From an uncultured Planctomycetaceae bacterium (lineage in GTDB: Bacteria; Planctomycetota; Planctomycetia; Planctomycetales; Planctomycetaceae): a stretch of 64,000 bases of DNA. The stretch covers positions 26,819 through 90,818 of the forward strand of contig CAWFAK010000004.1 of the NCBI GenBank assembly GCA_963813715.1, given 5' to 3'. How positions within the stretch are numbered: the first letter of the stretch is position 1; every line of letters begins with the position of its first letter. A model generated the notes under the pieces. That model was not told the origin of the DNA, did no database searches, and saw only the letters and a list, made by a program, of their open reading frames with translations. Made by a program: the position numbers and the translations under genes. This document shows positions 52 to 20,159 of this stretch, piece by piece.

Positions 52-2481
52 TCATGCGATCCCGAGCCGTCGGAAGACCGGCCCTTTGGCCGCGTCCACG
101 ACGAATGCGAAGACAAACGTCGCGACAAATGTGCCGGCGACGACCGATATCGGTAGAGGCGTCATCACGATCCCGCAGATCGCCAACGTCGTCGCGATCA
201 AGATGTCGGCCACGGATGACCCGATGACCCAATAGCTCGGCCAAGAAGACCACAGGCGCCGGCGCTCGCGGATGGCATAGGTCGCCGCCTGATTGCCAAA
301 CACGATGACGATAAAGGCCAGAGTTCTCAGCGCATCCATTTCGAGCTTCAGCCCAAACTCGCCGATCGCCAAAACTGCGCTGCAAAAGCCCAGTTCGAAG
401 ATCCCCATAAAAACGCCCGCGATCGTCAGTTTGCCGATGCGCCAGGCGTTGGGCAGCGGGGACGGTCGCACGTTGTCGGTGGTCAAGGACATTCCCAGGA
501 AGTCCCCAGTGATCATGACGATGACCATCAGCATGGGCGTCAGGATGGCGTCGCCGGTCATGATCAGACCGACGGCCAGGAAGAGCACTTGGACGACTTT
601 CTTGTTCACGGAGTTCAGCGTGTAAGTCAGGATGCGCTGGAACGTCACTCTCCCTTCCCGGACTGCGGCAACGATGCCGTCGAGTCCAGGCTTGGTCAGC
701 ACGATCCCCGCCGCCGACTTGGCGACGTCTGTCGCAGTCGACACCGCGATTCCCATTTGCGCCTGGCGCAGTGCCGGCGCGTCGTTGGCGCCGTCGCCGC
801 ACATTCCGACGGCGTGACCCTCCTTTTGGAAGGCCTTGACCAGGCGATACTTGTCTTCCGGCAGAACGGCGGCGAACCCCGCGAAGTCTTGCGGACGCAC
901 ACTGTCGACGATCGGCCCAGGTGGACAGACGCCCCCCTCAAGTCCGACCGCGCGAGCTACGATTGCCGCCGTCGCCGGCGCGTCGCCGGTCACCATCACA
1001 GTGCGCACACCCAACGTCTTTAGCTCCGTGATCAGCGCTGCCGAGTCCGTCCGAGGTGGGTCACTGAGTGCAATGAGGCCAGCTAGCCGCAGCGCGGCCG
1101 GCGGACCGATGGCGACGGCCAGGACTCTGAAACCTTGCGATTCAAACTCGCTTGCCGCCGTGGAAGCCGCTGGCGACGGTTGCGTGAGACGGACGATGAC
1201 AGCGAAGGCCCCCTTCACGATGCGCAGATTGCCGCCGCTCGGATCCACGACCGTCGCCTCGGACATTTTCGTCGCCGGATCGAACGGTACGAACGCGATC
1301 CGTTTCGGCAAATCGGACGGACCGTTGTGCGTGGCGGCAGAGCGAATGGCAGCATCGACGGGATCCTGTCCACCATCCGAGCCTGCGAGGGCAGCGAACC
1401 CCAGGAGGTGAGCCTCGTCGAAGCCGGATAACGGGCGGACGGTGGTCACGGTCAGTTCATTGCGCGTCAACGTGCCCGTTTTATCCGCGCACAGAACGTC
1501 GATGGAGGCCGCCTCGTCGACGGCGGAGAGTCGCGTCGGCAGAACGCCCAGGCGTGCCAGGGACTGTGCGCCAACCGCTGCCGCCAGAGTAAAGGTGGCC
1601 GGCAGCGCGACCGGGATTGACGCAAGAACCGCCGTGAGCACGAGGGAAATGATTTCCCCAAGCGGCATGGCGTGAAGCCAGGCGTACGCCACCAGGATGA
1701 CGATGAGCGTGCCGTTGAATAAGGCCAGGTTGCGCACCACGCGCAGCACAGCCTTCTGCTGAGAACTTACGACACGCGCAGTGAGAACGAGCTCCGCAGT
1801 TCGACCAAACTTCGTGCGAGCCCCGGTCGCCGTCACCACTGCGACGGCCTCGCCGCGCCGCACCAGCGCCCCAGCATAAGTTTGGAACGCGGGGCCAGAC
1901 TCGATGGGAATGGATTCGCCGGTGAGCATCGATTGATCGAGCAGAACTGATCCTTCGACCAAGCGCACGTCGGCGGGAACCACGGCGCCCAACGACAGCT
2001 TCACGATGTCGCCAGGGACCAAATCGGCTGCGGGCAGATTCGTCCAGGCGGCGTTGCGCCGCGCCGTCGCGGTCAGCGCCAGCCGTGACCTCAGCGCGGC
2101 CAGGGTTGCCTGGGCGCGCCCCTCCTGAAAAAAACCGAGAGCCGCGTTGAAGACCAGGAGAGCCGCGATGATCGCCGCCTCGACATACTCGCCGAGCGCA
2201 ATTTGAAGCGCAATCGCAGCTTCGAGCATCCAAGGCACAGGTGCCCAGAATTTGTCGAGTGCCAGCCGAAATGGATTCAGAGTCGTGTCAGAGACCGCGT
2301 TTGGGCCGAACTGCTTCAGCCGGCGGGCGGCCTCTTCGTTTGTGAGACCTGTGTCGAGGTTGGCAGGCAGCGTCTCGCGTGTGTCGAGACCTGGCGCCGC
2401 ACGGGCGATATCATCTCTGTCCCCGCTCGAACGCGGGAGCTCCGTGCCCAATTTGTCTATTGCCGTTGGCACATCGACCAA
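52..2481 (-). CDS. P-type ATPase, plasma-membrane H+-ATPase-like (type IIIA)
   Basis: DKTGTLT phosphorylation motif, TGES, MVTGD and GDGANDAPAL. N-terminal GLTNEEAARRLKQFGPN, IPVALP and late TM pattern resemble PMA-type pumps. Exact start uncertain. Confidence 0.9.
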   Translation of the reverse strand: MVDVPTAIDKLGTELPRSSGDRDDIARAAPGLDTRETLPANLDTGLTNEEAARRLKQFGPNAVSDTTLNPFRLALDKFWAPVPWMLEAAIALQIALGEYVEAAIIAALLVFNAALGFFQEGRAQATLAALRSRLALTATARRNAAWTNLPAADLVPGDIVKLSLGAVVPADVRLVEGSVLLDQSMLTGESIPIESGPAFQTYAGALVRRGEAVAVVTATGARTKFGRTAELVLTARVVSSQQKAVLRVVRNLALFNGTLIVILVAYAWLHAMPLGEIISLVLTAVLASIPVALPATFTLAAAVGAQSLARLGVLPTRLSAVDEAASIDVLCADKTGTLTRNELTVTTVRPLSGFDEAHLLGFAALAGSDGGQDPVDAAIRSAATHNGPSDLPKRIAFVPFDPATKMSEATVVDPSGGNLRIVKGAFAVIVRLTQPSPAASTAASEFESQGFRVLAVAIGPPAALRLAGLIALSDPPRTDSAALITELKTLGVRTVMVTGDAPATAAIVARAVGLEGGVCPPGPIVDSVRPQDFAGFAAVLPEDKYRLVKAFQKEGHAVGMCGDGANDAPALRQAQMGIAVSTATDVAKSAAGIVLTKPGLDGIVAAVREGRVTFQRILTYTLNSVNKKVVQVLFLAVGLIMTGDAILTPMLMVIVMITGDFLGMSLTTDNVRPSPLPNAWRIGKLTIAGVFMGIFELGFCSAVLAIGEFGLKLEMDALRTLAFIVIVFGNQAATYAIRERRRLWSSWPSYWVIGSSVADILIATTLAICGIVMTPLPISVVAGTFVATFVFAFVVDAAKGPVFRRLGIA

Positions 2482-2559: not shown

Positions 2560-3048
2560 TTAAGTCGGGACCACCAAATAGACCGTTTGCCCACCGTAGA
2601 TATAGGGCTGGTAATACACGCCGTCGCACACATCGTAGGTAATGCCATTCGCTAAGACCGTTTGGCAGCCGTCCGGCAGGGTGTCGTACAGGTAATACTG
2701 CGCACCGCCGAGCATGATGGAGCGGTACCCGGGACGAAAGTGCCGGGCATAGTCGCTGTGGTAGGGATTGCGAGCGGCGCCCCCTAACTCCCGGCCCCGC
2801 TGGACGGCCGGGCCTACAGGGTCACGACCTGCACGTTCGCCAAAGTGGATCGACCCGACGCGAGCAACCGCTTGTCCGCCCCCGACACGACCGCCGCCGA
2901 CATGAGCTCCGCCGCCTCCGCCTCGAGCGCCGCCGCCTCCACCACCTCCCCCGCGGCCACCTTGATACGCGCCGATCGGAGCCGTCGCCCACACCAACGC
3001 GGCCAGACCCAGAGTCAAAGTACCGGTCCAAAAAATGATTCGCCTCAT
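2560..3048 (-). CDS. Secreted Gly-rich hypothetical protein with a Tyr-rich C-terminal domain
   Basis: Signal-like MRRIIFWTGTLTLGLAALVWA, GGRGGG tract, C-terminal YDVCDGVYYQPY. Co-oriented downstream of DUF2092. Confidence 0.7.
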   Translation of the reverse strand: MRRIIFWTGTLTLGLAALVWATAPIGAYQGGRGGGGGGGGARGGGGGAHVGGGRVGGGQAVARVGSIHFGERAGRDPVGPAVQRGRELGGAARNPYHSDYARHFRPGYRSIMLGGAQYYLYDTLPDGCQTVLANGITYDVCDGVYYQPYIYGGQTVYLVVPT

Positions 3049-3230
3049 GATCGTTGCTCCTTTATCACTGCAAGAAGAATCCCAAGTCGAGCCGTCTGTG
3101 CAAGGAGTCCGGGGCTTGTCACGCCACAACAGGCTCCTCAGAACGCGACTCGATTTAATCCAGCGCGGAATGCTGCCGTTTCCCCCGAACGTGAACACAT
3201 TCACGATGTCGGAATCAGCTCATTACCCCT

Positions 3231-4019
3231 TTACCCGCTCGCCGCATCCTTCGCGGGTTTGGGCTCGGCATGCCGGTTCAGGAAATCGACCTTCCGCAAA
3301 CCCTCCGGCGGCTGGAACTGAAACATCTCATCGCTCAGCTTGGGGTTCACGTCCCAGCGGTGGATGAGAGCGGTGAATTGCGGCTGGTCGGCCTGCTGCT
3401 TGAACGTGATCACGAGCTTGCGCGGCAGCGGTTCGTCGCCCGCGTCGATCCAGATTTGCCAGTCCACAGCCTTCTGCCGGAACGCGAGGTGATGGCACTT
3501 CACCTTGCCCACGTAATGCAGGCCGACATACTCGCCGCTCTGCACGTTTTCCGTGAACTGCTTGTAGGGGTCGGCAAACAGAAAATCGGCCAGGGGCTGG
3601 TCCGTCTCGAAACGCTCGTGCAGATCGTCGAGCATCCCATCGATGGTGCCGGGCACCTTCTCGACAGCGTAGGTCTTTTGAGCGCGGTCGAAGACGGTGA
3701 CCGTCTTGCCGTCGTAATAGAATCGGGAGTTGGCCGTGTCCCCCTCGCTCTCGCCGAAGATCTTGTCGGGCCGACTCACGGACATGTGGCGCTGGTTGCT
3801 GAGCTGCAATTTCTGACCGTCGTCCTGCGTCTCGTCGAAGAATTCCTCGACCTGGAACGAATACGTGTGGAGGCCGGCCAGGTAGTTCGACATGGCCTTC
3901 AGATACTGTTCCGCCTTGGGCTCGATCTTGGGGGCCTCTTGTTGAGGATCGCCTGCGAAGGCGACTCCCCAAAAAATGGCCGCGACCGCCAATCCGACTG
4001 TCGCCATTCGCTTTTTCAT
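3231..4019 (-). CDS. DUF2092-family periplasmic protein
   Basis: Signal peptide; LKAMSNYL, VSRPDK, CHHLAFRQ..VDWQIWI..G..PLPRKLVIT signature. Confidence 0.85.
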   Translation of the reverse strand: MKKRMATVGLAVAAIFWGVAFAGDPQQEAPKIEPKAEQYLKAMSNYLAGLHTYSFQVEEFFDETQDDGQKLQLSNQRHMSVSRPDKIFGESEGDTANSRFYYDGKTVTVFDRAQKTYAVEKVPGTIDGMLDDLHERFETDQPLADFLFADPYKQFTENVQSGEYVGLHYVGKVKCHHLAFRQKAVDWQIWIDAGDEPLPRKLVITFKQQADQPQFTALIHRWDVNPKLSDEMFQFQPPEGLRKVDFLNRHAEPKPAKDAASG

Positions 4020-4246
4020 GATCAGATTCTCCGTCATTTGCCCGAAACACAGCCGCCGCACCATCGGGACACGCACCGACGCGCAGAACTGTCAGTTACT
4101 TGCCGCTGTCATTGACCCGCGATCGGCGCGCGGCCCGATTTTCTGGTGCGAGGGCCGGCGGGAATCGCGCCGAGGCAGACAAGAATCAAGCCCACAACGA
4201 GGGTCGTCGGACGCACTACTGGTCGTCGTTTGGAAAAAACGCGAAC

Positions 4247-5140
4247 CTAAAAACGATTTCCGCCCCGGAACTGCGACTGGGAAACCACTTTCGCGCGCCG
4301 GAAGATTCGGCGGGACGATGACTTTTCCGGACGGTCACACGCTTTCGCGCCCGCGTCTGGGACTCGTGGAGTCGATGCGAGAGGAAGGCGGACGACAAAC
4401 TCACTTCCGCGACCCAGTCCAGGGCTGTTCGCACTTACGCTGCCGCCGTGCATCTCCACCAACTTCCGCACCAGCGCCAGACCGATGCCCAGACCCCCCT
4501 CCGAATGATCTCGCGTGCGCTCCACCTGCCAGAAGGACTCGAAGACATGTGGGAGCATTTCCCGATCGATGCCAATCCCGGTATCGCGAACTCGTAGAAC
4601 GACATCGCTCGCTCGGGCCTCGGCCGTCAGCCAGATGCGGCCGCCTGGCTCCGTATACTTGGCCGCATTGTTCAGGAGATTCTTCAGCACCTGTTCCAGC
4701 CGGCCGGAATCAGCGTTGACGGATACGGGCCCCGGCGGGAGGGTGACTTCGAACTGGTGGCCGCGCTCGTCAAAGGACGAGCGCACGGTTTCGACCGCGC
4801 GGGCGACACACGCCGCCAGATCCACGGGCTCCTGACGCAAATGGATTTTGCCGTGCTCGATGCGGGAGACTTCCATCATGCCGTCGATCAGGCGGCCCAT
4901 GCATTGTGTTTGCCGCTCCATCAAGCCCCGGACGCTGTCCCGTGTGGCGGCGTCTTCCCCATCGAAGGCAAGCACCTGAAGCGCACTACAGATCGCGGCC
5001 AGAGGGGAGCGCAACTCATGCCCCAACTCGGCGAGGAACTCGTTCGTGTGCCGATCGGCGTCGCGGAGTCGACGGTCGGGAGGGGCGTTGCCGATCGTAC
5101 GCTGGAAGTCGCTCCCTGCCCGGATCAGTTGTTGAGCCAT
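4247..5140 (-). CDS. Histidine kinase (HisKA + HATPase_c), no evident sensor domain
   Basis: H-box LGHELRSPL, N-box NLLNNAAKY, DTGIGI and GGLGIGL boxes. Start taken at MAQQLIR. Confidence 0.85.
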   Translation of the reverse strand: MAQQLIRAGSDFQRTIGNAPPDRRLRDADRHTNEFLAELGHELRSPLAAICSALQVLAFDGEDAATRDSVRGLMERQTQCMGRLIDGMMEVSRIEHGKIHLRQEPVDLAACVARAVETVRSSFDERGHQFEVTLPPGPVSVNADSGRLEQVLKNLLNNAAKYTEPGGRIWLTAEARASDVVLRVRDTGIGIDREMLPHVFESFWQVERTRDHSEGGLGIGLALVRKLVEMHGGSVSANSPGLGRGSEFVVRLPLASTPRVPDAGAKACDRPEKSSSRRIFRRAKVVSQSQFRGGNRF

Positions 5141-5210: not shown

Positions 5211-5260
5211 AAAAAAACCGACGTGGCTGAGCCCCCTGAGGGACTCGACCACGTCGGTTT
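5211..5260 (-). terminator. Intrinsic terminator upstream of the histidine kinase gene
   Basis: AAACCGACGTGG...CCACGTCGGTTT stem running into a 7-T tract on the minus strand. Confidence 0.8.
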
Positions 5261-5316
5261 ACTCGTCAACGGACTCCCCAGCCCGGCTGGGTCGCCCTTT
5301 TTCTAGTCATCCGACA
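5211..5316 (-). promoter_or_regulatory. Putative structured leader/attenuator RNA, copy 1
   Basis: Minus strand TGTCGGATGACTAGAAAAAGGGCGACCCAGCCGGGCTGGGGAGTCCGTTGACGAGTAAACCGAC overlaps a terminator; homologous to 19457-19563. Confidence 0.75.
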
Positions 5317-5520
5317 ATGCCGAGAGCGAATTGCAAACGCACGCTTACGCTCCGACATCGTCCATACTAACGCGGATCGCCCGAAAGCACAATGAGCCTG
5401 TGGTCCTTCGCTGGCGATTGGTATCATCATGCAGACAAGTTTGGCAAAAACGCCGAACGCGGCTGCTCTTTCTGAAACGGTGTGTTGATCCGTGATCGGC
5501 TCGCTCAAGTGGCTCGGATC

Positions 5521-5901
5521 ATGAAAACCCAGGGCGAAATCGAAGCCGAGATTTGCGAAGGGATCTCGCGCTTTGAACAGGACTTCATGGGTCGGGGTCC
5601 CAAGGACATCCGCACGCATCTGATCGGTGACCTGCTGATCGTCCGTCTTCAAGGCGTGTTGACCGCAGCCGAACAACAACTGGTCAAAGTGCTCCCGGCC
5701 GAGAAGGGGAGGGATCTGCTGAAGCAGGTGCGGACCCAACTGGTCGAAACGGCGCGGCCGCTGCTGGAAGCCATGGTGCAGGAGACGACGGGTGTCAAGG
5801 TGCTGGCACTGCACCACGACATCAGCACGGTGACGGGCGAAGAAGTCGTGCTCTTCACGCTCTCCGAGTCGCCGCTATTCCGGCAAGCCAAGAAGAAATA
5901 G
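5521..5901 (+). CDS. DUF2294 / MpsC-like family protein
   Basis: MKTQGEIEAEIC...FEQDFMGRGPKDI, GVLTAAEQQL, HHDISTVTGEEVVLFTL are typical of DUF2294. Confidence 0.88.
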   Translation: MKTQGEIEAEICEGISRFEQDFMGRGPKDIRTHLIGDLLIVRLQGVLTAAEQQLVKVLPAEKGRDLLKQVRTQLVETARPLLEAMVQETTGVKVLALHHDISTVTGEEVVLFTLSESPLFRQAKKK

Positions 5902-6875: not shown

Positions 6876-7277
6876 CTCGCCGAGCGCGACCTCGATCTTG
6901 GCCTTGAACCTGCGACAGCCTGTTCGGCTGACCCTGAATTTTGGACCGAGCCGAAGGCGATCACGAATGCCCGGTTTGCCCAAGATCGGTTCTCAGTCGA
7001 AGCGACCGGCGCCGGCAACAGGCGCGGGTGCCGGCCGCGTCGATCGATGTGACCGACGGGCGCCCCGGGAGACAACTCAAGTAGTCGATCAGGTCGCTAT
7101 TTCACTCGCTTTTTCCAAATCCTCGGTGCGTTTCTTGCATGATCTGGAACATCTTGAGCGCTTTCTCTCGTCGAATTACCTGCAGTATGATTGCCGTACC
7201 CGGTTTATTAAATGCGTCTATCGGCGTGCCGAATCTTGGTGCACGCCGCGATGCGGTCAGTTCACATGCGAGGTGGC

Positions 7278-8760
7278 ATGCGAGTCGCGACAAATCAAAC
7301 GTTGGTGCGCCATTCGGCGGCCGGCTGTTGCGCTGCCTGGGTTGCCTTCGCCGCGCTGTTCCTGACGGCGGCAATCGCTCACGCGGCCGACGCCGGGCGA
7401 CGGCCGAACGTTGTCTTGGTGATGACGGATAACCACGGCGCGTGGACCTTGGGCTGCTACGGCAATCGCGAGATCAAAACGCCAAACATCGATCGGCTGG
7501 CAGCCGAGGGAATGCTGTTCACGCGGGCGTACTGCACGCACTCCCTTTGTTCGCCGAGCCGGGCGACATTCTTGACAGGACTCATTCCGTCGCAGCACGG
7601 GCTGCACTACACCGTAACGGAAGCCAGCGACGCCGATCCCGCGGGATCAGACCAATCCTGTGCGATCCGAGAGTTCGAGACGCTGCCCAAATCTCTTGCG
7701 CGTGCGGGGTACGTCTGCGGATTGTCGGGCAAATGGCATCTGGGCGGTTTCACTCGGCCACAGGAGGGATTTCAGTACTGGTTCACGATGCCGGGCGGCC
7801 ATACCATGACTTACTACGGCGCCCAGGTTTTCTGGCAGGGAAAGATACAGAAGGAGCCAGGGTACCTCATCGATGCCATGACGGATCATGCCGTCGATTT
7901 CATCCGCCAGAACCGCGACAAGCCGTTCTTCCTGTTCTTGACGTACGACGCTCCCTACGGGGTCAGCAGCTGCTTCACGCGGCCTCACGAAAACCGCCAC
8001 ACCGCCTACTACGCGGACAAGCCCCTCACGTCCTTCCCGCGCGAAAAGGTCCATCCGTCGCAGAAGTACCGTTTGGAGCTGATTAACAATCCCGTGGCAA
8101 TTCGCGGCTACGCGGCCGCCGTCAGCGGCGTCGACGACGGTGTCGGAACGATCCTGAAGACGCTGGCGGATCTCGGTATCGACAAGGATACGATCGTGAT
8201 CTTCACGGCCGATCAAGGCTTTAACGGCGGACACGGCGGAATGTGGGGTCTCGGCGAACATACCGAGCCCCCGAACACGCGCGAGCCGGTCGTCCGCATC
8301 CCTCTGATCGTCCGCCATCCGAGCCGGATTGCGCCCCATGCCGTCTGCGATCGAATGATTGCGTCTTATGACCTGCTGCCGACTGTCCTCGCCTATTTAG
8401 GGTTGTCCGACCGCATTCCGTCGAGGCCTTCGCTGCCGGGACGAGATTTCTCTCCACTGCTGCTGGGGCGCACGATGGCGTGGGACGATGTGATCTTTCA
8501 CGAGTTCGACCGGACGCGAATGATCCGCACGCCCCGCTGGAAGCTGACGCGGCGCTATCCGCACGGTCCGGACGAACTCTACGACATGCAATCCGACCCC
8601 GAAGAACGCCGAGACCTGCACGCAGACGCGGCGAGCGCTCAGGACGCTCCGCGACTTGACCGCGCGGCTTGAACAGTTCTTCGATCGCTACGCCGATCCA
8701 AAATATGACCGGACCCGCAACGGCAAGTCAAAGTTCGAGCGGGATTTCAATTTCAGGTGA
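7278..8760 (+). CDS. Sulfatase (formylglycine-dependent), frameshift near 8640
   Basis: RPNVVLVMTD, CSPSRATFLTG, GKWHLG. C-terminus continues in another frame (LEQFFDRYADPKYD...FNFR*, stop 8758-8760). Confidence 0.88.
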
Positions 8761-9124: not shown

Positions 9125-10438
9125 CTCGCGCTGCCAGGAGAGCGGTCTCAGCAACCGTCGGGGCTGCTTGGGGACCCGTCCGGTGCTGAATGTTTGGTCC
9201 GTCCGGTTTCGGCACGGCCGCGAGCTCGACGGCCAGGATGGAGCTGTCGTCTTGAGGTCTCTCGGCTCCCTGCCACTGCGAGATCTCCCCCAGCAGGCTC
9301 CCGAGCCCGACTCGCAGCGGTTCGGCTCGATATCGCTCGATTGCTTCCCGGAGCCGGGCCTCGCCGAAGCGTTCGCCGTCGGCGTTCATCGCATCGGGCA
9401 AGCCATCGGAGTACAGATACATCCGGTCCCCCGCGCCAGATGGACCCGTCGTTCAGCGTACGCTTCCTCCGCCAAACCGATTGGAAACCCTGGGCTTTCG
9501 AGGATCACCGGGGGCCCATCGGCGGGAAGTAGCAGTGGGCCGGGATGGCCCGCGGAAACATGACGGAAATCCCCGTTCGCGACGTCCAGGACGCCGTACA
9601 TCAGCGTCGCGAATTGCTCCGTCGCCATGTCAAAGGGAAAGAGCCGATTGAGGCAGTCGGCGACCTCGGCTGGGGGCGTGATCTCGAGTCGATCGAGGGC
9701 GGCTCGATCACGGATCAGGATCGAGGACGGTTCTGACGGGGGCGAGAGGAGACGGCAGAGTGTCACCGACAGCAGGGCCGATGACACGCCATGGCCGCTC
9801 ACATCCAGAATACAGAGGCCAACCTTGCCGTCGCCGAGCGGAATGATGTTCAGCCCATCGCCAGCCAGTTCGTCGCAAGGCTGGTAGCACCAGGCGAACT
9901 CGGTGCCGGGGACCCGAGGCGCCGCGCAAGGTAGAAATGTCTTCTGGATCCTTGCGGCCGCCTCCAGATCGCGAGCCATTCGGCCGTTGACCCTCTCCAG
10001 TCGCGAGTTGGTCTCCTCCAGCTCGACGTGCAGGCGGCGGAGTTTCAGATGCGTCTCGACGCGCGCGTGCAATTCCTCCATTTGAAATGGCTTGGTGATG
10101 TAATCGACGCCGCCGACGGCAAACGCCTTCACCTTGTCGAGATTGTCGTTGAGGGCGCTGATGAAGATGATAGGAATTCCCCGCAGAGTCTCATCAGCTT
10201 TCAAGCACTGGCAGACCTCGTAGCCGTTCATTTCCGGCATATTGATGTCCAACAGGATCAGATCGGGAGGGTCCTTCCGCGCTGCCAGGAGCGCCAGTTT
10301 GCCGCTCGGAACGGGACGGGTTTTATAGCCGCGGTCCTTGAGCATGCCGGTGAGTACCTGGAGATTGGCCGCGGCGTCATCCACCACCAGGATGCTGGCT
10401 GTTTGGCCGATATCGGTTTCAGGCTTTTCCGCCTTCAT
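9108..10438 (-). CDS. Response-regulator receiver + SpoIIE/PP2C phosphatase, frameshift near 9430
   Basis: REC (ILVVDD, LLDINMP, KPF); PP2C motifs DVSGHG and SAGH; LYSDGL..GERFG..QDD in the second frame. Confidence 0.88.
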
Positions 10439-13400
10439 GGCAGGCTCTCGACAGGACTCAATGAACTTTCCGCAGGTTCTCCCTGGTCGAAGAGATCGAG
10501 CAGCTTCTGGTATTCAAAGCTTTCCGCCAGGCGGCGCAGCTTCTGGGCGAGTCGGGGATTGCAGTCTTCAACGCTGCGGATTTGTTCCAGCAGATCGTCC
10601 AGATCGGCCCGGATGATGGCTTCACGCATCTGGTGAATGAAGTCGTGCGGCAACTCCGCCAGGGACTCGGGAGTGATCTCGACCGTTTCCTCGGGGTCCG
10701 GTGCGGCAGGCGGCTCGGCGTAAACGAACTCTACGCCCAATTGGGCGTGAATCTTCTGGAAGAGGTCGATTTCCCGGAATGGCTTGCTGATGAAATCGTC
10801 GGCGCCGATCTTCAGCAGCTCCTGTCGGTTCTCGTCCATCGCACTGGCCGTCACGGCAATGATCTTGATCTCCCCGCCGCCGGCCATGGCCCGGATCTGC
10901 CGAATCGCCTCATGGCCGTCCATCACCGGCATGCGAAAATCCATCAAAATCAGATGGGGTCGCCATTTCTCAAACTCCCGGACGGCTTCGGCTCCATTGG
11001 TCGCCAGCCCGATCTCGAAACCGACGGGACCGAGAAGCTGGGCCAGCAGCTGGCGGTTATCCTCGACGTCGTCGGCAATCAGCACCCGGCAGTTTGCCTG
11101 CCCGGGCTGCAGCCTCAGGACCTGTCGGGGCGTCTCCTTCACTTGAACTGCCTGGGCCTCTCCCTCCTTCAATGGCAGGTGAACCACGAAAACGCTGCCT
11201 TTGCCAACCTGGCTTTTCACCGTGATGTCGCCAGCCATGAGACGAACAAACTCGCGGCTGATGGCCAGGCCGAGCCCCGTTCCGGTCGCCGCTTGTTGCC
11301 CCGACTTGGTTTGCTCGAAATGCCGGAACAACTTCTCTTGATCTTCGGGCGAAATGCCCGAGCCCGTGTCCTCAATTTCGACCACGAGAATGGGTCGCGT
11401 TGTGTCATTGCGGTCCGCGCGCACGCGCAACGCGATCCCCCCTTGCTCGGTAAACTTGACTGCGTTGCCCAGCACGTTAATGAAGACCTGCCGCAGCTTG
11501 TTGATATCGGTCACGATGTATTGGGGCACGCTGCCGACCATCTCGACCGAGAACGATAGCTTTTTCTCATTCGTGCGGAGGCGGAACATCATCTCCACGT
11601 CTTTGAGCAGCGCGAACAGGTCGAACGTGGTGAGATTCAGGGTCGTGCGGCCGGCCTCGATCTTGGACATTTCCAGGATGTCATTGATCAGGGCCAGGAG
11701 ATGCTCGCCGCTGCGATTGATGGTTCCCAGGTACTGGTTTTGTCGCGGCGTGAGATCCTGGTCGCGGAGCATCAACTGGGAGAACCCGAGGATGGCGTTC
11801 ATGGGCGTGCGGATTTCGTGCGACATGTTCGCCAAGAAGACGCTCTTGGCGCGGTTGGCTTGCTGCAACGACTGCTCGTAGCGTTTGCGTTCGGTGACAT
11901 CGCGGGCCGCGGCGAACACCCCCTGAAGCTTTCGGTCGCGATCGTGGAAGGTGGATGCGTTATAGGACACCACGGTTTCCTTGCCGTCCCTGGCGCGCGG
12001 TGAGTTCGTAGTCGGTGACCTTGCCTTCGCCCAGCACCAGCTTGATGCCCGCTTCGGCCCGATCGGAGTCGGTGAAGTAACCCTTGAACGGCGCGCCGAT
12101 GAGCTCGTCGCGCGTGCATCCGGTGAGCGCCTCCATCTGCTTGTTCACGTCGGTGATGATGCCGCGCGGATCGGTGGTGATCAGGGCATCAATGTTCGAT
12201 TCAATCAGCGAGCGGGTGTAGAACTGTTGATCGCGCACGCGCTGATCCAGCAGCATTCGCTCGGCTTCCACCTGCTTTCGTTCGGTATTGTCGGTGCCAA
12301 TCAAGAGATAACCGATAATTCCGCCTTCCGCGTCACGCAGCGCCGTCACCGACACGATGGCCGGAAAGCGGCTGCCATCCTTGCGGATGTAGGTCAATTC
12401 GTAGATGTCCTCGATCCCGCGCGAGGCCTTGAAAACCAACGCCTCGAAGCCCGGAGTGATCGTGGTCCCTAGCTGGGCGCTCAAGGCTTTGGCGCGCGTA
12501 ATCACTTCCTGCGGATCGGAAATGTCGGCCGGCGTAATCTTGTTCATCACGTCCGCGGCCGTGTACCCCAACATGGCCTCGGCGCCGACGTTGAAGATTT
12601 GGATGACGCCCTTCTCGTCGGTGGCGATGCTGGAGAAGTTGGGGCTGTTGAAGATCGCGTTCTGCAACGCGCCGGCTTTGAGCAGCGCTTCTTCCGCCCG
12701 CTTGCGCGGTCACGTCCTCCATCGCCAGAACGAGCAGTTCCCCGTGATGCCCCGCCTGAAGCTTGCGGGCGTTGAGCAGCATCACCCGGCGTCCGATGAC
12801 CGGGAACGTGTGCTCGAGCTCGAAGTCGTCGAAGACGGAGCTTTTGGGCACAACATCCTCGAGCAGCGTCCGCAGATCGGGAATGTCCCATTGGCCGTTG
12901 CCCAATTCATAGATCAGGCGGTCCTCAGTCTCCGCGGACGAAACGTGAAAGGCCTGATAGAAGGCGCGATTGGCGGACCGGACGCGCAAGGTGGCATCGA
13001 GGATCAGCAGCGGCTCGCGTACCGTGTCAACAATATTCTGGGCGTAGGTTTCGATCGCCTTCAGATCGGCCTCGGAGCGCCGCCGCTCCGTTACGTCCTC
13101 CATCGCCAGCACGAGCAGTTCCCCGTGATGGCCCGCTTGAAGCTTGCGGGCGTTGAGCAGCATCACCCGGCGTCCGATGACCGGGAACGTGTGCTCGAGT
13201 TCGAAGTCGTCGAAGACCGAACTCTTGGGGACAATGTCCTCGAGCAGCGTCCGCAAGTCGGGGATGTCCCACTGGCCGTTGCCCAGCTCGTAGATCAGAC
13301 GGCCCTCGGTCTCCTTGGGCGAGACGTGGAAGGCCTGGTAGAAGGCGCGATTGGCGGACTGAACGCGCAAGGTGGTGTCGAGGATCAACAGCGGCTCGCG

Positions 13401-13463: not shown

Positions 13464-13523
13464 GGGCGTTCCTTTATGTGCTTCGAGGTTCTCACGGGCG
13501 GCCGCGCGCCCCAAGTGCACGCG

Positions 13524-13911: not shown

Positions 13912-15468
13912 TTAGGGCGCCGGTCGCCCAACCGTTTTGAACAGTTCGCGCAGCTTCGTCACGTCCACGGGCTTGACGTAGTAATGGTTAAATCCGGTTT
14001 CCTGTTGACGCTCGCGGTCGGCTTCGCTCGGCGTATAGCCGGTCAAGGCACACATCATCACGTCCTTGAATCCCGGCAGCTGTCGCAAACGCTTGGCGAC
14101 CTGATAACCGTCTATTCCCGGAAGGCCAATATCCAACAGCACGACGTCGGGCCGACAAGCCGCGGCCAGCTCCAGGGCTGCCGGGCCAGAGCGAGCCACT
14201 TGGACTTCGTGCCCGTACAGACGCAGCAACAGGCTCAGGCTATCCGCCGTATCGACGTTATCTTCCACCACCAACACCCGCAGCGACCGTTCCGGGTGGT
14301 CCAGTTCGAGCACGGTTCTCGTTTCCGGCACCGGCGCACGTGTCAGCACCGGCAACTTGATCGTAAATTCGCATCCCTTTCCCAATCCGGCACTGGACGC
14401 CTGCAACCTGCCTTCGTGCATCTCGACCAGGTTGCGAGCGAGAGCCAGGCCGATCCCCAATCCGCCGTACGAGCGACCGAGCGAGCCGTCGACCTGTGTA
14501 AACAGCTCGAAGACGTGAGGCAGCAGTTCCGGGGTGATCCCGACTCCGTTATCCCGCACTTGGATCACGGCTTCGTTACCTTCCTGACTGACGGCCATGC
14601 GGATCAGTCCGCCCGCTTCGGTGTACTTCGCCGCATTGTTGAGCAGGTTGACCACGACCTGCTCAATTCGAGTGGGGTCCGCCTCCACCCAGATCGGCGC
14701 GGTGGGGAGAGAGACCGAGAAATCGTGTTTCCGCGCGTCCATGAAGGGCCGGACCGACTCGGCGGCGTCGTTGACGACGCCCCGCAGTTCGACTTGCTCC
14801 TTGGTCAGCCGCAATTTCCCTTTGGTGATCCGGCCGATGTCCAAAAGGTCGTCGACCAGTCGCACCATCACGCCCACTTGCCGGTCGATGATGTTTCCGG
14901 CTTGCGCGATGATCGGGTCGTTCGTCTTCATCTGTCGCAGGATGCTCAAAGCATTGCGAATCGGCGAGAGGGGACTGCGGAGTTCATGGGAGAGCAGCGC
15001 CATAAACTCTTCTTTGCTCCGGTTGGCTTCAGCCAGTCCGTCGGCCCGCTTCCGTTGAGCCAGCGCCGCTTCGCTTTCGGTGAGGTCGTGCATCACTCGA
15101 GCGAATGACCGGGCCTGCTTGTCCTCATTGAGCAAAGGCGTCACGGTCGCGTGACACCAAAACCGTGTTCCATCTTTGCGGAGCTGCCAGCAGTTGTTGT
15201 GAGCCCGCCCCTCAGCCAGCGCCGTCTGGAGTTCATGCTCGGGTGCGCCGCTGCGAATTTCTTCGGGGGCAAAGAAACAGGAAAAGTGCTGCCCCACGAT
15301 TTCGTTGGACAGATAGCCGAAGAGTTGTTCCGCCCCTGGGTTCCAACAAATGACATGTCCTCCCAGGTCGACCAGGAAGACGGCGTATTCCTTTGCGTCG
15401 GTCGCCAGCAGGTCGAAGCGCTCTCCGATTTCTTGCGACGAGAGATGGCCTGAGCTTTCTGAAGACAT
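13912..15468 (-). CDS. Hybrid histidine kinase PAS-HisKA-HATPase-REC
   Basis: WNPGAEQLFGY PAS, SHELRSPL, NAAKYT, GGLGIGL, VLLDIGLPG. Confidence 0.92.
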   Translation of the reverse strand: MSSESSGHLSSQEIGERFDLLATDAKEYAVFLVDLGGHVICWNPGAEQLFGYLSNEIVGQHFSCFFAPEEIRSGAPEHELQTALAEGRAHNNCWQLRKDGTRFWCHATVTPLLNEDKQARSFARVMHDLTESEAALAQRKRADGLAEANRSKEEFMALLSHELRSPLSPIRNALSILRQMKTNDPIIAQAGNIIDRQVGVMVRLVDDLLDIGRITKGKLRLTKEQVELRGVVNDAAESVRPFMDARKHDFSVSLPTAPIWVEADPTRIEQVVVNLLNNAAKYTEAGGLIRMAVSQEGNEAVIQVRDNGVGITPELLPHVFELFTQVDGSLGRSYGGLGIGLALARNLVEMHEGRLQASSAGLGKGCEFTIKLPVLTRAPVPETRTVLELDHPERSLRVLVVEDNVDTADSLSLLLRLYGHEVQVARSGPAALELAAACRPDVVLLDIGLPGIDGYQVAKRLRQLPGFKDVMMCALTGYTPSEADRERQQETGFNHYYVKPVDVTKLRELFKTVGRPAP

Positions 15469-15550: not shown

Positions 15551-16561
15551 TTAGTTCTCGATTGGCAAGGCCAGCCTCATGTGTTTTCTCTCGCGCGGCT
15601 CGGGACAATCTCGCAGGTAGTCGAGAAGGTCAGAGAGTTGCGCCGTGGCCAAGGCCAGGCAAGTGTCCGCGCCGCCGTAGTAGATGCGAATCGTGCCGTT
15701 GGGACCCAAAATCCAACCGCACGGAAAGACGACACCGTTGACGTCTCCGTGACGTTCGTAGGCCGTTTCCGGCGCGAAGATCCACTCGTCGCTGCGGCGA
15801 ATGACGCGACGAGGGTCCTCCAAATCGAGCAGAGCCAACCCCAGTCGATAGAGGCAGCCTCCGGCCGTGACGCGGACGCCGTGATACATCAGCAGCCAGC
15901 CCTCCGGGGTTTCGAGCGGAGGGGGGCTCAAGCCGATCTTGTTCGCATCCCACCAGGCTCCGCGGCGTGCCGGCAACAGGATGTGATGATCGCCCCAGTG
16001 AGTCAGGTCGGGTGAGAAAGACAGCCAAATATGCGCCCCCGAGCTCCCCGCGGAAACCGGTCGATGGATCATCGCGTAGCGATTGCCAAAGCGAACGGGA
16101 AACACGGCCGCGTCCTTGTCCTCGGGGGGCATGACGGGGCCGAGCCGGGTAAACGAGTTGAAGTCTTTGGTGGTCATTAGTGAGACGAGCGGTCCACTGG
16201 GCGAATAAGCCGTGTAGGCGATGACCCATTCGCCGCGCTCGGCGACCCACGTCAACCGCGGGTCTTCGACGCCCCACTCTTCTTCCGGGAAGTTCGCCGG
16301 TTCGGGGGCGAAGCTGGGCTTGGAATCGATGTGCCAGTTCGACACGCCGTTGTTACTGCGGGCCACAGTCAGATGCGAATGGCCGCGCCGATCCTCCACG
16401 CGGACAAGCAACACCGTTTCGTCACCGACCTGGCACGCGCCGGCATTAAACACGGCATGGGCCGGATAGGGCCAATCGCGAGCCGTCAGGATCGGATTGG
16501 ACGGATTGCGCTTCAGAAGTTCTGTATAAAGACCAGATGGCTTCGATTCTCGCAGCATCAC
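15551..16561 (-). CDS. GH130-family glycosidase/phosphorylase
   Basis: NPIL, VFNAGA, GVEDPRL, EDKDAAVFP, HRP, YHGV, VVFPCG and YYGGAD motifs. Confidence 0.88.
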   Translation of the reverse strand: MMLRESKPSGLYTELLKRNPSNPILTARDWPYPAHAVFNAGACQVGDETVLLVRVEDRRGHSHLTVARSNNGVSNWHIDSKPSFAPEPANFPEEEWGVEDPRLTWVAERGEWVIAYTAYSPSGPLVSLMTTKDFNSFTRLGPVMPPEDKDAAVFPVRFGNRYAMIHRPVSAGSSGAHIWLSFSPDLTHWGDHHILLPARRGAWWDANKIGLSPPPLETPEGWLLMYHGVRVTAGGCLYRLGLALLDLEDPRRVIRRSDEWIFAPETAYERHGDVNGVVFPCGWILGPNGTIRIYYGGADTCLALATAQLSDLLDYLRDCPEPRERKHMRLALPIEN

Positions 16562-16600: not shown

Positions 16601-17707
16601 TCAGACGACGTCGCAGTGTTCTTGCGCAACGTGCGCTGAGGTTTCCGCCCCGCATATTTCCGCACTGCGCAATTCGGTCCATAAATACGCCAAAGTCGAT
16701 TCGGCTCCCTGGTTCCGATTCAGGCCCGAGGCCTGTAATCCGTCGCAGCAAGCGCCGTCCGACGCGTCGACGAGTGGTTGCCTCAAGCTGTTTTCGCCGT
16801 AGAACCAGGCGCGCGCCCTGCGGAAGGTCGAGCGGTACCTCTCATCGCCCAGCAGGTCTAAGCCGGCGAGTGCCGCGTCGGCCATTGTGGAGGCTTCCAC
16901 CGGCTGCTGATCGTAGAGCGCCTTGTCTTCTCCGTGCGGGTACCAGTCGTCATTTCCAACGGGCCAGAAAATTCCGTCGCTCGTCGTCTCCGCTTCGAGA
17001 AATGCAAACGCGGATGCGGCGACATCGAGAAACCCGTTCCCCTGCCAAAGCTGGGCGGCGACGAACAGGGCGTGTGGCAACACCGCATTGGCATAAGTCA
17101 TCCGCGATTCGAACCACGGCCAGTCACTCCGCATCGAGCGGTTGTAACACTCGACCAGTCGCAGAGCCGCCGACCGCGCGACGCTTTCGATCGCGCTAAT
17201 CTCCTTTGCCCCCTGTCCCCACAGATGGCCCCAAGCCAGGATCACGTAGGCCTGAGCGCGGAAGCTGCGCAGCTCGGCTAGAGCCGGGAGAACCGCTTCG
17301 ATCAACTCCCGCGCCAAGAGCCGGTAGCCCTCCGGCAGAGAGCTGCCGGCGACCTCGGCGAGCGCGATGACCGCCTGACCCTGGCAATCGCCGGTGCCTT
17401 CCGCATCGAGCCAATCTCGCTGGTAACTCAGGAAGTTGTGGAATCCGCGAACCGGGCAGCGGGCGTGTTCCAGAAAACTCAGGTAGCGCGTCACGCGACC
17501 GAGCATTTGCTCGTTCGGATCGCGGGCCCAGAGTCGAGTGCACAGCCGCAGGGCGCGGGCGTTGTCGTCCGTCGTGTAACCACTTTCGCGTCGCGGAATG
17601 CTGTAAATCGCATGTTGAATCAACCCGGTTGAGTCGGTCATCCGGTCCAAGTGACACAACGGGATGCGATGAGAGATCCCTTGCGGGATGACATGGCCGT
17701 CGGACAT
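16601..17707 (-). CDS. Glycosyltransferase-associated (alpha/alpha)6-like protein
   Basis: HLDRMTDSTGLIQHA, GYTTDDNARAL, DQQPVE, NRNQGAESTL; this domain is often fused C-terminal to GT4. Start overlaps the GT4 stop. Confidence 0.82.
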   Translation of the reverse strand: MSDGHVIPQGISHRIPLCHLDRMTDSTGLIQHAIYSIPRRESGYTTDDNARALRLCTRLWARDPNEQMLGRVTRYLSFLEHARCPVRGFHNFLSYQRDWLDAEGTGDCQGQAVIALAEVAGSSLPEGYRLLARELIEAVLPALAELRSFRAQAYVILAWGHLWGQGAKEISAIESVARSAALRLVECYNRSMRSDWPWFESRMTYANAVLPHALFVAAQLWQGNGFLDVAASAFAFLEAETTSDGIFWPVGNDDWYPHGEDKALYDQQPVEASTMADAALAGLDLLGDERYRSTFRRARAWFYGENSLRQPLVDASDGACCDGLQASGLNRNQGAESTLAYLWTELRSAEICGAETSAHVAQEHCDVV

Positions 17708-18957
17708 CAGAGACCTCCCCCCAAAAGTTTAGCGCATCGCGCCTTGCCGCTCGATTTCGTCAGGGCGCTGCGAACAGCACGCCGCGGGGCTGCATCGTTT
17801 GCGGAGGCAGCGTTTGCAAAGGCAGCGCTTCTAAAACAGTCCAAATACTGACGGCCCACGTTCGGCCAAAACATGAGCTTCGCGTAGCTGTGGGCGCGGT
17901 GTCCGGTCTCCGCCCGAAACTCGGGGTTGTCCAGAAATCGCAAAGTCGCGTCGGCCAGAGCATCGCTTTGTGCGAAGGGCACGATCAGGCCGCGACCCTC
18001 GGCCAGGACCTCTTCGGCGTACAGGTAGGGCGTGCTCACGACCGCTCTTCCCGCCGCCAGGGCATAGGCCAAAGTGCCGCTTGAAATCTGATCTTTTCCG
18101 GGGTAGGGCGTCACGTAAACGTCGCAGGCTTGCAAGTGTTCCATGAGTTCGTCGAGCGCAAGGAATTTGTTCACGAAGTGCACATGCGCGCCAACACCGA
18201 GCGCGTCCGCCCGCGCGGCCAGGCTCTCCCGATAGACTTCTCCCTCGCGTCGCTTCACTAACGGATGTGTGACTCCGACCACCAGATATTGGGCTTGCGG
18301 ATGGGCCTGCACGATGCGGGGCATGGCCTCGATCATGTATTCAAGGCCTTTCCCGCGGTTAATCAGGCCAAAGGTACAGATCACCTGACGATTGGCGAGT
18401 CCCAGCCGGGCCTTCTGTGTGTCGTCTCGCGCGGACGCGACCACCGGGACGCCATGCGGAATGATTTGCACCTTTGCTCCGGCGACGCCGTAAACCTGAT
18501 CGAGGAGCCTGGCAGCCACTTTCGTCATCACGATCAGGCTTTGGCTCTTGGCCGCCAACTCCCGAATGATGAGCCAAGGAGCCGGAGCCGGCTTGGTCAT
18601 CAGCGTGTGGAACGTCGTGACAATCGGCTTACGGCACGCACGCACAAAGTCCAGCACGTCGCCGCCCCAATCACCGGGGTAGAGGCCGAACTCGTGCTGC
18701 AGACTCACCACATCGCACGGACCGTCGTTCGCCACGTCTGCCGCAAGGGTGTAGGCTTCGTCGCAACTGTTATCGATCACGTGGACGACGCGCGGATCGT
18801 CATAACTGAGCGACGGGGTCTTCAGGATCGCAGCCGACGAGGAAATTGGCTCGCCTGCCGCAAGATCCACCGCATCGGCGGTGTCCTTGGTGAAGGTCGC
18901 CAGCCCACACTCTTCAGGCGGGTAGGTCGACACAAACAGCGGTCGAACGAGATCCAC
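17707..18957 (-). CDS. GT4 glycosyltransferase
   Basis: [46 protein letters not shown]. Confidence 0.9.
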
Positions 18958-18984: not shown

Positions 18985-19347
18985 CTAGACCATCGACCGC
19001 TGATGAACGCCATGATTGCGGTTTCGAGAGTCACGATTGCGCGTCCGGATGAATTGCGTGCCGAAGTTGTACTCGGCCCCGATGATGAGGCTCTTGGAGG
19101 AGCAGGAGACACAATGACGTTTGGCGGTCGGCGCCGTGTTCCAACTTCCGCAGGCTCCGCAGAAATAAGCCACGAGCGCGCTCGCGCCGCACGTGCATCG
19201 CCCGGGACGAAGCCGACTGGTGGAGACGATTCTCTTGCAATGACGGCAAGACCAACGATAGAGAGGCAGCCGCAGCCAGGCGTAGGTCCCTCCCGCTAGA
19301 GCTAAAACGCAGCCACCGGCCACGACCATCCACGTCTGAGGATTCAT
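18985..19347 (-). CDS. Small membrane-anchored Cys-rich (zinc-finger-like) protein
   Basis: N-terminal hydrophobic helix followed by CRHC, CTCG, CGAC and CVSC; GAAGGAG-like RBS upstream. Confidence 0.7.
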   Translation of the reverse strand: MNPQTWMVVAGGCVLALAGGTYAWLRLPLYRWSCRHCKRIVSTSRLRPGRCTCGASALVAYFCGACGSWNTAPTAKRHCVSCSSKSLIIGAEYNFGTQFIRTRNRDSRNRNHGVHQRSMV

Positions 19348-19456: not shown

Positions 19457-19507
19457 AAAAAAAGCCGACGCGGCAGAACACGTGAGAGTGTTCTGCCGCG
19501 TCGGCTT
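19457..19507 (-). terminator. Intrinsic terminator upstream of the GT4/GH130 cluster
   Basis: Perfect 20-bp stem AAGCCGACGCGGCAGAACAC/GTGTTCTGCCGCGTCGGCTT running into a T tract. Confidence 0.85.
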
Positions 19508-19563
19508 ACTCAGCAACGAGCCCCCCGAATCGGCCGGGTTGCCCCTTCTTTAGTCATCCGACA
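19457..19563 (-). promoter_or_regulatory. Putative structured leader/attenuator RNA, copy 2
   Basis: Minus strand TGTCGGATGACTAAAGAAGGGGCAACCCGGCCGATTCGGGGGGCTCGTTGCTGAGTAAGCCGAC overlaps a terminator. Confidence 0.75.
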
Positions 19564-20159
19564 GCGATCGCTGAAGGCGATCTCGATGTCTCAACAGGAT
19601 CAAGTGTAGCTCAAAGAGCCGTGGATGCATAGGAGCGTGCGCCGCCGGTTGCCCAAAGTCAGTCTTCTTGCGGAGAGGCGATGCTGCAGAAATACAGCGA
19701 AGCCGTCCACGAAGGGGGGCAAAACGACCCCGCCCAGCTTAAAGGGAATCGCGACGGGCCGGGCCGGCAAAAACTGACGCGTACGATGAATAACAGCCGG
19801 CACCAGCCGTTTGCCGCACTATCACTTGTGGGCATCGGTCAATCGTCTCAATGGTTATTTGAGTCGCATCATAGTTTCGAGGGCGCTCGTGGCTTCACAT
19901 TCTTGCTCGGCCGGTTACGGTGCCAATCTCAAGCTCCCCTCGCCCGCGCAAATATGTTCTTCAAATGGAACGTACCGGATTCGACGAGTTTCCAGGAATC
20001 CGACTTCGATCACCGCCTTGATCGGTGGTCGAATTCGGACAGTGCGCGCGGTAATGATGCGCCAGACCCCGGGGCAGTCCATTCTCGGAAAAGGCTTGAT
20101 GTTCCGGAATTCGACAGCCGACCTTGTCCGATTTGAATTGCCCAAAGAGGTCGGAGTGT

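Follow-up and report, generated by a model that had tools for sequence, protein, structure and literature searches.

A terminator-coupled leader RNA family upstream of stress genes in Planctomycetota, probably a transcription attenuator

Two copies of a leader element in one genome

The stretch analysed here (hereafter the window) comprises 64,000 nucleotides (nt) of contig CAWFAK010000004.1, positions 26,819 to 90,818 of the forward strand, from assembly GCA_963813715.1 of an uncultured Planctomycetaceae bacterium. Its minus strand carries twice, between genes, an element made of a conserved RNA module and an intrinsic terminator, each time ahead of a run of co-oriented genes (Table 1). Judged by sequence comparison, these elements belong to a large RNA family that is new as far as Rfam 15 and our literature search show. 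This leader RNA, with its built-in stop signal, probably decides whether the stress genes downstream are read. It represents a known kind of mechanism, the terminator-coupled leader RNA, and stands apart by its lack of a relative among the described families, by its unusual regulon and by its link to particular protein genes.

The two copies share a conserved module of 63 nt. A first-pass annotation, made from the letters of the window and a list of its open reading frames (ORFs), had proposed a pair of minus-strand elements with a common 5' module; both are real and lie where it placed them, except that the modules begin at 5315 and 19562, one base inside the starts given then (5316 and 19563). 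The copies align with no gaps and with 53 of 75 columns invariant. From the base of the stem upwards, each contains helix P1a (GUCGG/CCGAC), a 3x3 loop, helix P1b (ACU/AGU), a 7x7 loop, helix P2 (GGGC/GUCC in copy 1, GGGC/GCUC in copy 2), a 2x2 purine loop and helix P3, in which CCCAG/CUGGG of copy 1 is replaced by CCCGG/UCGGG in copy 2 with the exchange of an A-U for a G-C pair. All the helices described before, the 7x7 and 2x2 loops and the change in P3 are present, and ViennaRNA, when given the module alone, predicts the identical P1-closed structure (-30.2 kcal/mol for copy 1 and -32.0 kcal/mol for copy 2; z -3.8 and -2.9). When it is given the full 116 nt, the terminator fold is preferred (z -5.5 and -6.7, with no shuffle as good). 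As the annotation had seen, CCGAC serves in both copies as the 3' strand of P1 and as the 5' arm of a terminator with a tail of seven U. From the U-run to the next co-oriented start codon there are 70 nt in copy 1 (ATG at 5140) and 109 nt in copy 2 (ATG at 19347), as had been estimated. The flanks, which had been called unrelated, do share the base of the terminator (GACGYGG...CCRCGUCGG) and a promoter-like TTG-N17-TAnnnT. The four copies that we found in this genome score 82-95 bits with a model built from them (E about 1e-17 to 1e-21), and since the same module also recurs in many other genomes its similarity between copies is far beyond chance.

The genes behind the two copies have counterparts behind the element elsewhere. 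DUF2092, encoded by the second gene after copy 1, takes first place behind the element in other genomes, a GT4 glycosyltransferase gene likewise follows it in relatives, and hybrid kinases similar to the one in the copy 2 run lie directly after it elsewhere. The cation ATPase of the copy 1 run appears, by sequence, to be nearest to type IIIA proton-efflux pumps. The first gene after copy 2 has a Shine-Dalgarno-like GAAGGAG ahead of its ATG; its product has no similarity to the Transgly_assoc ORF that occupies the equivalent place in relatives. Between the two copies, the minus strand at 9386-13544 encodes a REC-PP2C (SpoIIE-type) phosphatase, a HisKA-HATPase-REC kinase and multi-PAS proteins, which we take to resemble general-stress signalling of the RsbK/RsbY type.

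Table 1. Features of the element and of its neighbouring genes. Positions are those of the window unless another record is given; ranges run from the lower to the higher position.
Feature	Position	Strand	Basis or remark
Copy 1 conserved module	5253..5315	-	fold, 93.1 bits, covariation
Copy 1 intrinsic terminator, stem from CCGAC of P1, U7 at 5217-5211	5211..5257	-	minimum-energy fold, -33.4 kcal/mol
Copy 1 variable 5' leader with predicted hairpin P0 (CGGAGCG ... CGCUCUCG, about 5354-5321)	5316..5357	-	inferred
Copy 1 -10-like hexamer TAGTAT	5364..5369	-	consensus match; ends 48 nt before module
Copy 1 -35-like hexamer TTGTGC	5387..5392	-	consensus match only; 17 nt from -10
Copy 1 gene 1: soluble histidine kinase, HisKA + HATPase_c, without sensor domain	4247..5140	-	
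Copy 1 gene 2: DUF2092 periplasmic protein	3231..4076	-	252 bits
Copy 1 gene 3: 214-aa protein, no clear family	2560..3204	-	weak DUF6515 match below cut-off
Copy 1 gene 4: P-type cation ATPase	52..2481	-	TIGR01647, 598.9 bits, just below cut-off 615.5
Canonical MpsC/DUF2294 gene, divergent from copy 1	5482..5901	+	PF10057, 126.7 bits
Copy 2 conserved module	19500..19562	-	fold, 81.9 bits
Copy 2 intrinsic terminator GCCGAC...GUCGGC, U7 at 19463-19457	19457..19505	-	minimum-energy fold, -38.8 kcal/mol
Copy 2 -10-like hexamer TACACT	19603..19608	-	consensus match; ends 40 nt before module
Copy 2 -35-like hexamer TATGCA	19626..19631	-	consensus match only
Copy 2 gene 1: 120-aa ORF, N-terminal hydrophobic stretch, Cys-rich body, no family	18985..19347	-	
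Copy 2 gene 2: GT4 glycosyltransferase	17707..18957	-	
Copy 2 gene 3: 368-aa protein, no family	16601..17707	-	
Copy 2 gene 4: GH130 mannoside phosphorylase-like	15551..16561	-	
Copy 2 gene 5: PAS-HisKA-HATPase-REC hybrid kinase	13912..15468	-	
Copy 3	G000:C4:25974-26036 (L036:1501-1563), about 780 nt before window base 1	-	pattern and model
Copy 4	G000:C7:223788-223850 (L009:1501-1563)	+	pattern and model

A leader RNA family across Planctomycetota

The impression of the first-pass annotation that the element belongs to no named Rfam family is borne out by the searches, which used cmscan against Rfam 15 at gathering cut-offs and, around each copy, in E-value mode up to 10. No gathering-level match lies in the window, and among 20 diverse related loci only a tmRNA and a tRNA match, both off the element. 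In E-value mode the best match to the copy 1 module is Actinomyces-1 (16.6 bits against a cut-off of 39.1), and the best one listed for copy 2 is mir-2147 (21.7 bits against a cut-off of 80), which falls on the terminator hairpin; both are noise. The element is undescribed in the literature searched, most subscription journals being outside that search, and the main text of two discovery papers (PMC11109978 and PMC8632094) contains none of the words Planctomyc-, Pirellul-, Rhodopirellula and Gemmata.

An exact pattern of 18 bases found four copies in the genome under study: two in the window, one on the same contig outside it and one on another contig. Searching Planctomycetota with covariance models revealed a phylum-wide family. 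The first model, built from these four copies and applied to relatives at E <=0.01, has matches in 27 of 101 related genomes (the genome itself included), among them 10 of the 11 genomes of its genus and members of three further families of the class. One of these matches (L035, genome G063) was deemed false: it scores 29 bits, has no U-run and lies at a PP2C gene. One more relative (G070) was later added to the carriers. The match counts per genome include weaker echoes on the reverse strand, because the stem is nearly palindromic; on the element's own strand, a complete genome (G003) has 8 true copies and a three-contig assembly (G005) has 12. The second model, built from 84 distinct sequences, was applied to 151 genomes sampled evenly from the phylum, under the stricter filters used for large sets, and matches 5 of them. 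Scanning one genome per species with the exact pattern gave at least 132 stretches, and the record titles among those listed cover Planctomycetaceae, Pirellulales/Pirellulaceae, Thermoguttaceae, Gemmataceae, Isosphaeraceae, Schlesneria, Planctomicrobium, Tepidisphaeraceae, Phycisphaerae and Kuenenia-labelled bins. In each of five of these distant genomes the model has 7-16 matches, often gathered in stress islands; one such island holds nine copies within 70 kb.

Some records from these scans deserve mention on their own. Pattern matches labelled Draconibacterium, Acidimicrobiia and Vicinamibacterales (L127, L167 and L169) were set aside, as the model does not confirm them at E 1e-6. A bin labelled 'delta proteobacterium' (L160-L162) holds three strong copies within 5 kb (best score 88.7 bits), which points to a wrong label for the bin or to an occurrence of the element beyond the phylum. 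Two module matches stand in tandem, 182 nt apart, ahead of one ice-binding-like gene (L044:323-385 and L044:505-567, plus strand), and several genomes contain back-to-back divergent pairs of elements about 250-1300 nt apart. In two distant genomes a tmRNA gene (L027:355-716, plus strand) and a tRNA gene (L082:1270-1340, plus strand) lie just upstream of the element.

The fold is supported by covariation across the family. In a first set of 84 distinct sequences, 93.5% of the cells are standard pairs and 13 of 18 pairs have changed on both sides. The covariation score is 0.251, compared with 0.120 for shuffled partners (none of 500 shuffles reaches the observed value), and sliding the partners yields 0.02-0.09. 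For a second set, of 97 distinct sequences, the score is 0.274 against 0.128; its alignment was fitted by the model and partly pre-selected by the pattern that fixes P1. All ten pairs of P2 and P3 covary in both sets, as do two of the three pairs of P1b in the first set (ACU/AGU to ACA/UGU), so that P2, P3 and P1b, as proposed from two copies, are backed by covariation. P1a shows none: its CGG/CCG is invariant and its U-A pair is occasionally U-G. Conservation is strongest in P1 and the two lower loops; the tip of P3 varies in sequence and length, and modules range over 58-80 nt. A longer P1, with GAC..GUC pairing beyond GUCGG/CCGAC, is possible in the genus of the window, is not retained in other families and was rejected. 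A loop of the UAA/GAN type was also dropped, UAA being found in only 88 of 180 copies.

Requiring a hairpin of -15 kcal/mol or better, four or more U and a stem that starts at CCGAC, we found the terminator in 84/86 sequences of the first set and 94/95 of the second (178/181 in total; median -31 kcal/mol). After CCGAC, the sequence of its stem is conserved as GUGGUnGAA..CC in two classes of the phylum (5252-5241 and 19499-19488 in the window), and the spacing from CCGAC to the U-run is 35-36 nt in 114 of 180 copies. Most members of the family have an upstream match to TTGnnn-N17-TAnnnT, identified by consensus only, with the -10 hexamer ending mostly 41-50 nt before the module. The transcription start of copy 1 is, on this ground, a predicted one. 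Shuffles of the 42 nt upstream of the module fold less well than the original stretch in 139 of 179 cases (mean -8.5 for shuffles against -11.5 kcal/mol); the sequence is unconserved, and these predicted energies suggest that the stretch from promoter to module forms a variable 5' hairpin.

Stress genes and the MpsC-CsrA pair behind the element

The element lies consistently 5' of co-oriented genes, as had been expected of a leader. Pfam matches occur in 90/210 same-strand downstream ORFs (54/146 and 36/64), compared with 1/110 ORFs of at least 110 aa on the opposite strand of the first kilobase. For 70 of 85 elements a Pfam-supported, co-oriented ORF starts within 900 nt, and the first such ORF usually begins 40-150 nt past the module. 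Of the 132 downstream ORFs of the second set, 63 have Pfam matches. Tabulating the downstream genes shows stress-gene families recurring after the element. The commonest is MpsC/DUF2294, which is the first supported gene at 23/85 elements and is often followed by CsrA. Also in the set are CsbD, YflT, BON/OsmY-like, MscS, ferritin/Dps, PRC-barrel, Band 7, Transgly_assoc, DUF1328 and DUF2092; alongside them are the chaperones Hsp20, Hsp70 (DnaK) and Cpn60 (GroEL), KaiC, and signalling proteins (PAS hybrid kinases, response regulators, PP2C/SpoIIE and SpoIIAA-like proteins), together with P-type cation ATPases, GT4 glycosyltransferases and ice-binding-like proteins. At least 17 genera show this linkage of the element to the same genes. 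We propose from these gene contents that the downstream set may be a general-stress and heat-shock regulon shared across Planctomycetota. In a study of Rhodopirellula baltica, the response common to heat, cold and salt includes a ferritin/Dps cluster and NifU (Wecker 2009, PMC2754498), and the stress-response genes given there are of the same kinds as those linked to the element.

The tightest association is with MpsC and CsrA, counted here with profiles built from the element-linked proteins of both families. An MpsC-family gene starts at most 700 nt downstream of 39 of 179 elements; where at least 1200 nt of sequence are available, CsrA follows MpsC directly in 14 of 25 cases, and at 7 further elements CsrA comes first. 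Divergent arrangements, with an MpsC start at most 700 nt upstream, occur at 34/135 elements in both classes of the phylum. In the genome under study, copy 3 is followed by a gene of the type that we call MpsC2 (L036:993-1412, minus strand) and then by a 75-aa CsrA paralogue (L036:752-979, minus strand), an order that looks like the core operon of the family. This genome has eight CsrA-like ORFs, which is unusually many; only one of them is linked to an element, and it is the best of the eight paralogues against the profile of element-linked CsrA. Full-length MpsC2-type matches of at least 147 bits, a cut chosen after viewing the list, occur in 23 of the 101 related genomes, which are not independent samples, and all 23 have the element: 22 were matched in the first search, and in the remaining one (G070) an element was predicted between a divergent MpsC pair and the model confirmed it. 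Four genomes with convincing elements (G007, G018, G020 and G068) have no such MpsC2 match. The MpsC2 proteins are acidic, with isoelectric points (pI) mostly of 4.8-6.8. A phmmer search of MpsC2 against the PDB gave no matches, and its AlphaFold model (predicted local distance difference test, pLDDT, 75.4) gave nothing at E <=0.001 with Foldseek and a best Z of 6.7 with VIA-align, within the noise range stated for that tool. On the RNA side, 167 of 180 copies have GGA at positions 4-6 of the module, in the 5' strand of P1; a second GGA lies in the 3' half of 92/180, and 101/180 could form a 3-bp mini-hairpin in which the first GGA would be exposed.

Switching and its possible effector

Taken together, these results make it very likely that the element works in cis, as an ON-type attenuator of transcription that serves a general-stress regulon. 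We infer both the switching and its direction as follows. Transcription would start at the sigma-70-like promoter some 35-45 nt upstream of the module, and the RNA would form in turn the variable 5' hairpin, the 63-nt stem of P1a, P1b, P2 and P3, and the strong terminator. As CCGAC is at once the 3' strand of P1a and the first five bases of the terminator stem, a closed P1 would leave the terminator without its base, as a residual hairpin 5-6 nt from the U-run, and the polymerase would read through into the genes; with P1 open, the full terminator would form and a short RNA of about 150 nt would be released. Because the full-length RNA prefers the terminator, termination would be the default by energy, and an effector that stabilises the P1-closed fold would turn the genes ON. 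The proposed exclusivity of the two folds would agree with the overlap at CCGAC in 178/181 sequences and with the swap of predicted folds with length, but the pairing of P1a rests on invariant bases rather than on covariation. The Rfam search, the phylum-wide matches of the covariance model, the covariation, the constant orientation and the overlap all favour the proposal of an attenuator controlled by either a ligand or a protein, with P1a as the part that does not covary.

If this is right, the element would found a new class of riboswitch-like attenuators, among those with the most copies in each genome and distributed across an entire phylum in which gene regulation has hardly been studied. 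The stress regulon of Planctomycetota could be defined by sequence alone, every gene behind the leader being a candidate member, and the co-induction of chaperone, Dps, osmoprotection and signalling genes would be explained. For experiments, a 63-nt RNA that can be read out through its terminator would be at hand, and the DUF2294/MpsC family and the many CsrA paralogues of these bacteria, both so far unexplained, would gain a testable role.

Several observations weigh against a ligand-controlled attenuator of this design. The switch would hinge on P1a, a helix backed by conservation and not by covariation; its outermost pair is unpaired in 29/83 sequences, the complete GUCGG/CCGAC occurs in just 89/180, and changes in CCGAC are tracked better by the 3' arm of the terminator than by the 5' strand of P1. 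The terminator stem is conserved in sequence beyond what a terminator needs, and expression platforms of riboswitches are usually without sequence conservation. The genes most tightly linked are those of small soluble MpsC-family proteins and of the RNA-binding CsrA, not of a transporter or enzyme that would indicate a ligand. The regulon, with its chaperones, kinases and transporters, is so mixed that a global protein regulator would suit it equally well, and the evidence names no ligand. Finally, the RNA evidence consists of assembled contigs without ends, strand or level, and the libraries may contain DNA. Parts of the locus are present in contigs from eighteen soil and rhizosphere metatranscriptome runs of 16 studies. 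One of these contigs (X2, record 16) covers 19505-19053 and crosses the terminator of copy 2 into the ORF, which is a weak hint of read-through. Other contigs match the element only and then diverge (loose ends at 5208 and 5315), which implies that other copies of the element are present in the RNA libraries. None of the contigs listed bridges the terminator of copy 1; breaks at the element are expected for a repeat and are therefore uninformative on termination.

What would close P1? We lean, at a little under even chances, towards a small ligand or an ion as the signal of osmotic or general stress, and slightly favour it over a protein of the MpsC/CsrA module because the conserved bases lie in the internal loops and P1 while the tip of P3 varies, because many copies per genome precede varied genes, because the set includes genes for cation pumps, channels and osmoprotection, and because the simple hairpin resembles the Li+ and Na+ riboswitch classes. 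Such a sensor would be new and could be used as a tool. A protein effector is a real contender, one to which we give somewhat better than a third of our belief: the attenuator would be the same, and an MpsC/DUF2294-family protein or the linked CsrA paralogue would bind the leader and set the choice between P1 and terminator. CsrA on the conserved GGA could, for example, favour termination, and the acidic MpsC2 could be its antagonist, by analogy with FliW, which antagonises CsrA in Bacillus. This is what the linkage of both genes to the element, the order behind copy 3 with its best-matching csrA, the presence of the element in every MpsC2 genome, the divergent canonical MpsC genes in both classes, the near-constant GGA and the low pI of MpsC2 would lead one to expect; it also fits a regulon of heat-shock and general-stress type, the RsbK/RsbY-like genes between the window copies and a conserved terminator sequence that could be a protein contact. 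Yet CsrA would need GGA sites only, whereas the loops of the 63-nt stem are more than 90% conserved; the second GGA is present in about half of the copies, and position 6 is not invariant. The co-occurrence may mean simply that mpsC2-csrA is the oldest member of the regulon, in genomes that are related to each other, and the MpsC2 model matches no known RNA-binding fold, acidic proteins seldom binding RNA directly. If the partner switch of MpsC and CsrA were true, it would be the first function for DUF2294 and a new mode of action for CsrA. A wider conjecture, which we hold to be rather unlikely, is that the general-stress and heat-shock response of Planctomycetota runs through RNA: a single leader family, ahead of about a dozen operons in each genome, would take the place of the alternative sigma factor or the repressor found in other phyla, with MpsC/DUF2294 and a dedicated CsrA acting as a new partner switch on an intrinsic terminator.

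Three further explanations dispense with a dedicated effector or with attenuation itself. The leader might sense temperature or bulk ionic strength directly, as a transcriptional RNA thermometer or ionic-strength sensor; Hsp20, Hsp70, Cpn60 and osmotic genes are among the targets, and a P1 of 4-5 bp plus 3 bp is short enough to be sensitive to conditions. Heat, however, would melt P1 first and lead to termination, the wrong direction for heat-shock genes, and neither the stability of the terminators nor loops conserved more strictly than a thermometer needs speaks for such a sensor, while known RNA thermometers mask the ribosome-binding site, which the element does not; we consider it improbable. 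We give as little credit to the view that the elements are chiefly trans-acting small RNAs of about 150 nt, their position ahead of genes being incidental or the terminated leader doubling as a small RNA. The sigma-70-like promoter, the strong and sequence-conserved terminator, the many near-identical copies per genome and the copies seen in metatranscriptome contigs would all suit it, but free-standing small RNA genes would not be expected to keep essentially always the same orientation and a short distance to the next gene, with the same gene families following across classes, and the conserved single-stranded stretches lie in internal loops of the stem rather than in an exposed seed. That the element is an inert intergenic repeat, or a plain terminator of the upstream gene, can claim its many copies and its hairpins; covariation, conservation across two classes, the fixed order of promoter, module, terminator and gene, and the constant gene linkage across genera make this hardly credible.

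Comparison with known systems places the element close to several of them and within none. The Li+ (nhaA-I) and Na+ (DUF1646) riboswitches are likewise short stems whose internal loops are conserved; one strand of their P1 also belongs to an intrinsic terminator, they follow ON logic, and theirs too is a cation-pump or osmotic regulon named after one small, poorly understood gene; the element differs in its phylum, in a far wider regulon that includes chaperones and kinases, and in its sequence-conserved terminator. Models of both classes are in Rfam and give no match at E up to 10 around either copy. Riboswitches for second messengers, the RNA end of global signalling pathways, reach a dozen or more copies per genome before mixed genes (c-di-GMP-I/GEMM, c-di-AMP ydaO and ppGpp ykkC subtype 2a), but they have multi-stem or pseudoknotted folds instead of a simple three-helix stem, the element has no Rfam match, and no cyclase or synthetase genes were seen beside it. 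The ribonucleic antiterminator (RAT) hairpins of BglG, LicT and SacY are conserved stems with internal loops that overlap the 5' arm of a terminator; binding to them causes read-through, and they also control the operon of the regulator itself. The module has roughly double the length of a RAT, its targets concern stress rather than sugars, and no CAT/PRD antiterminator domain was found in a scan that covered only the ORFs near the elements. The CsrA/RsmA and FliW-CsrA systems recall the CsrA paralogue that follows a small acidic protein in the core operon and the GGA in the switching strand. RNAs bound by CsrA/Rsm are defined by two or more GGA motifs presented in loops. In the element one GGA is conserved, which lies in the stem and not in an exposed loop of the P1-closed fold; about half of the copies have a second GGA, and somewhat more than half could form the mini-hairpin that would expose the first. 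To our knowledge, CsrA has not been established as a regulator of intrinsic terminators. ROSE and FourU thermometers also control heat-shock genes at the RNA level from the 5' untranslated region, but they mask the Shine-Dalgarno sequence and act on translation, while the element is coupled to a terminator and ends 40-150 nt before the start codon; a thermometer of this type was rejected for the window, where the elements end 70 and 109 nt before their start codons. One Planctomycetes candidate motif, Rhodopirellula-1, is described as a possible cis-regulator, without Rfam accession in the table, and its Stockholm file is flagged as overlapping a transposase-related motif (Weinberg et al. 2010, PMC2864571). 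Its first rows, compared by eye, read AACNA..GAUGAAC...GUUAUC...CGUU, a different sequence and fold, and the identity was rejected.

A few minor observations concern the genome itself. Copy 4 precedes a gene for pterin-4a-carbinolamine dehydratase, and an IS110-family transposase gene follows about 600 nt further on. The depth of the metatranscriptome contigs is highest at 11760-13511, where PAS domains of other organisms may contribute. Between the stress operons of the window lies a sulfatase gene (7212-8672, plus strand); abundant sulfatases are typical of Pirellulales-like genomes.

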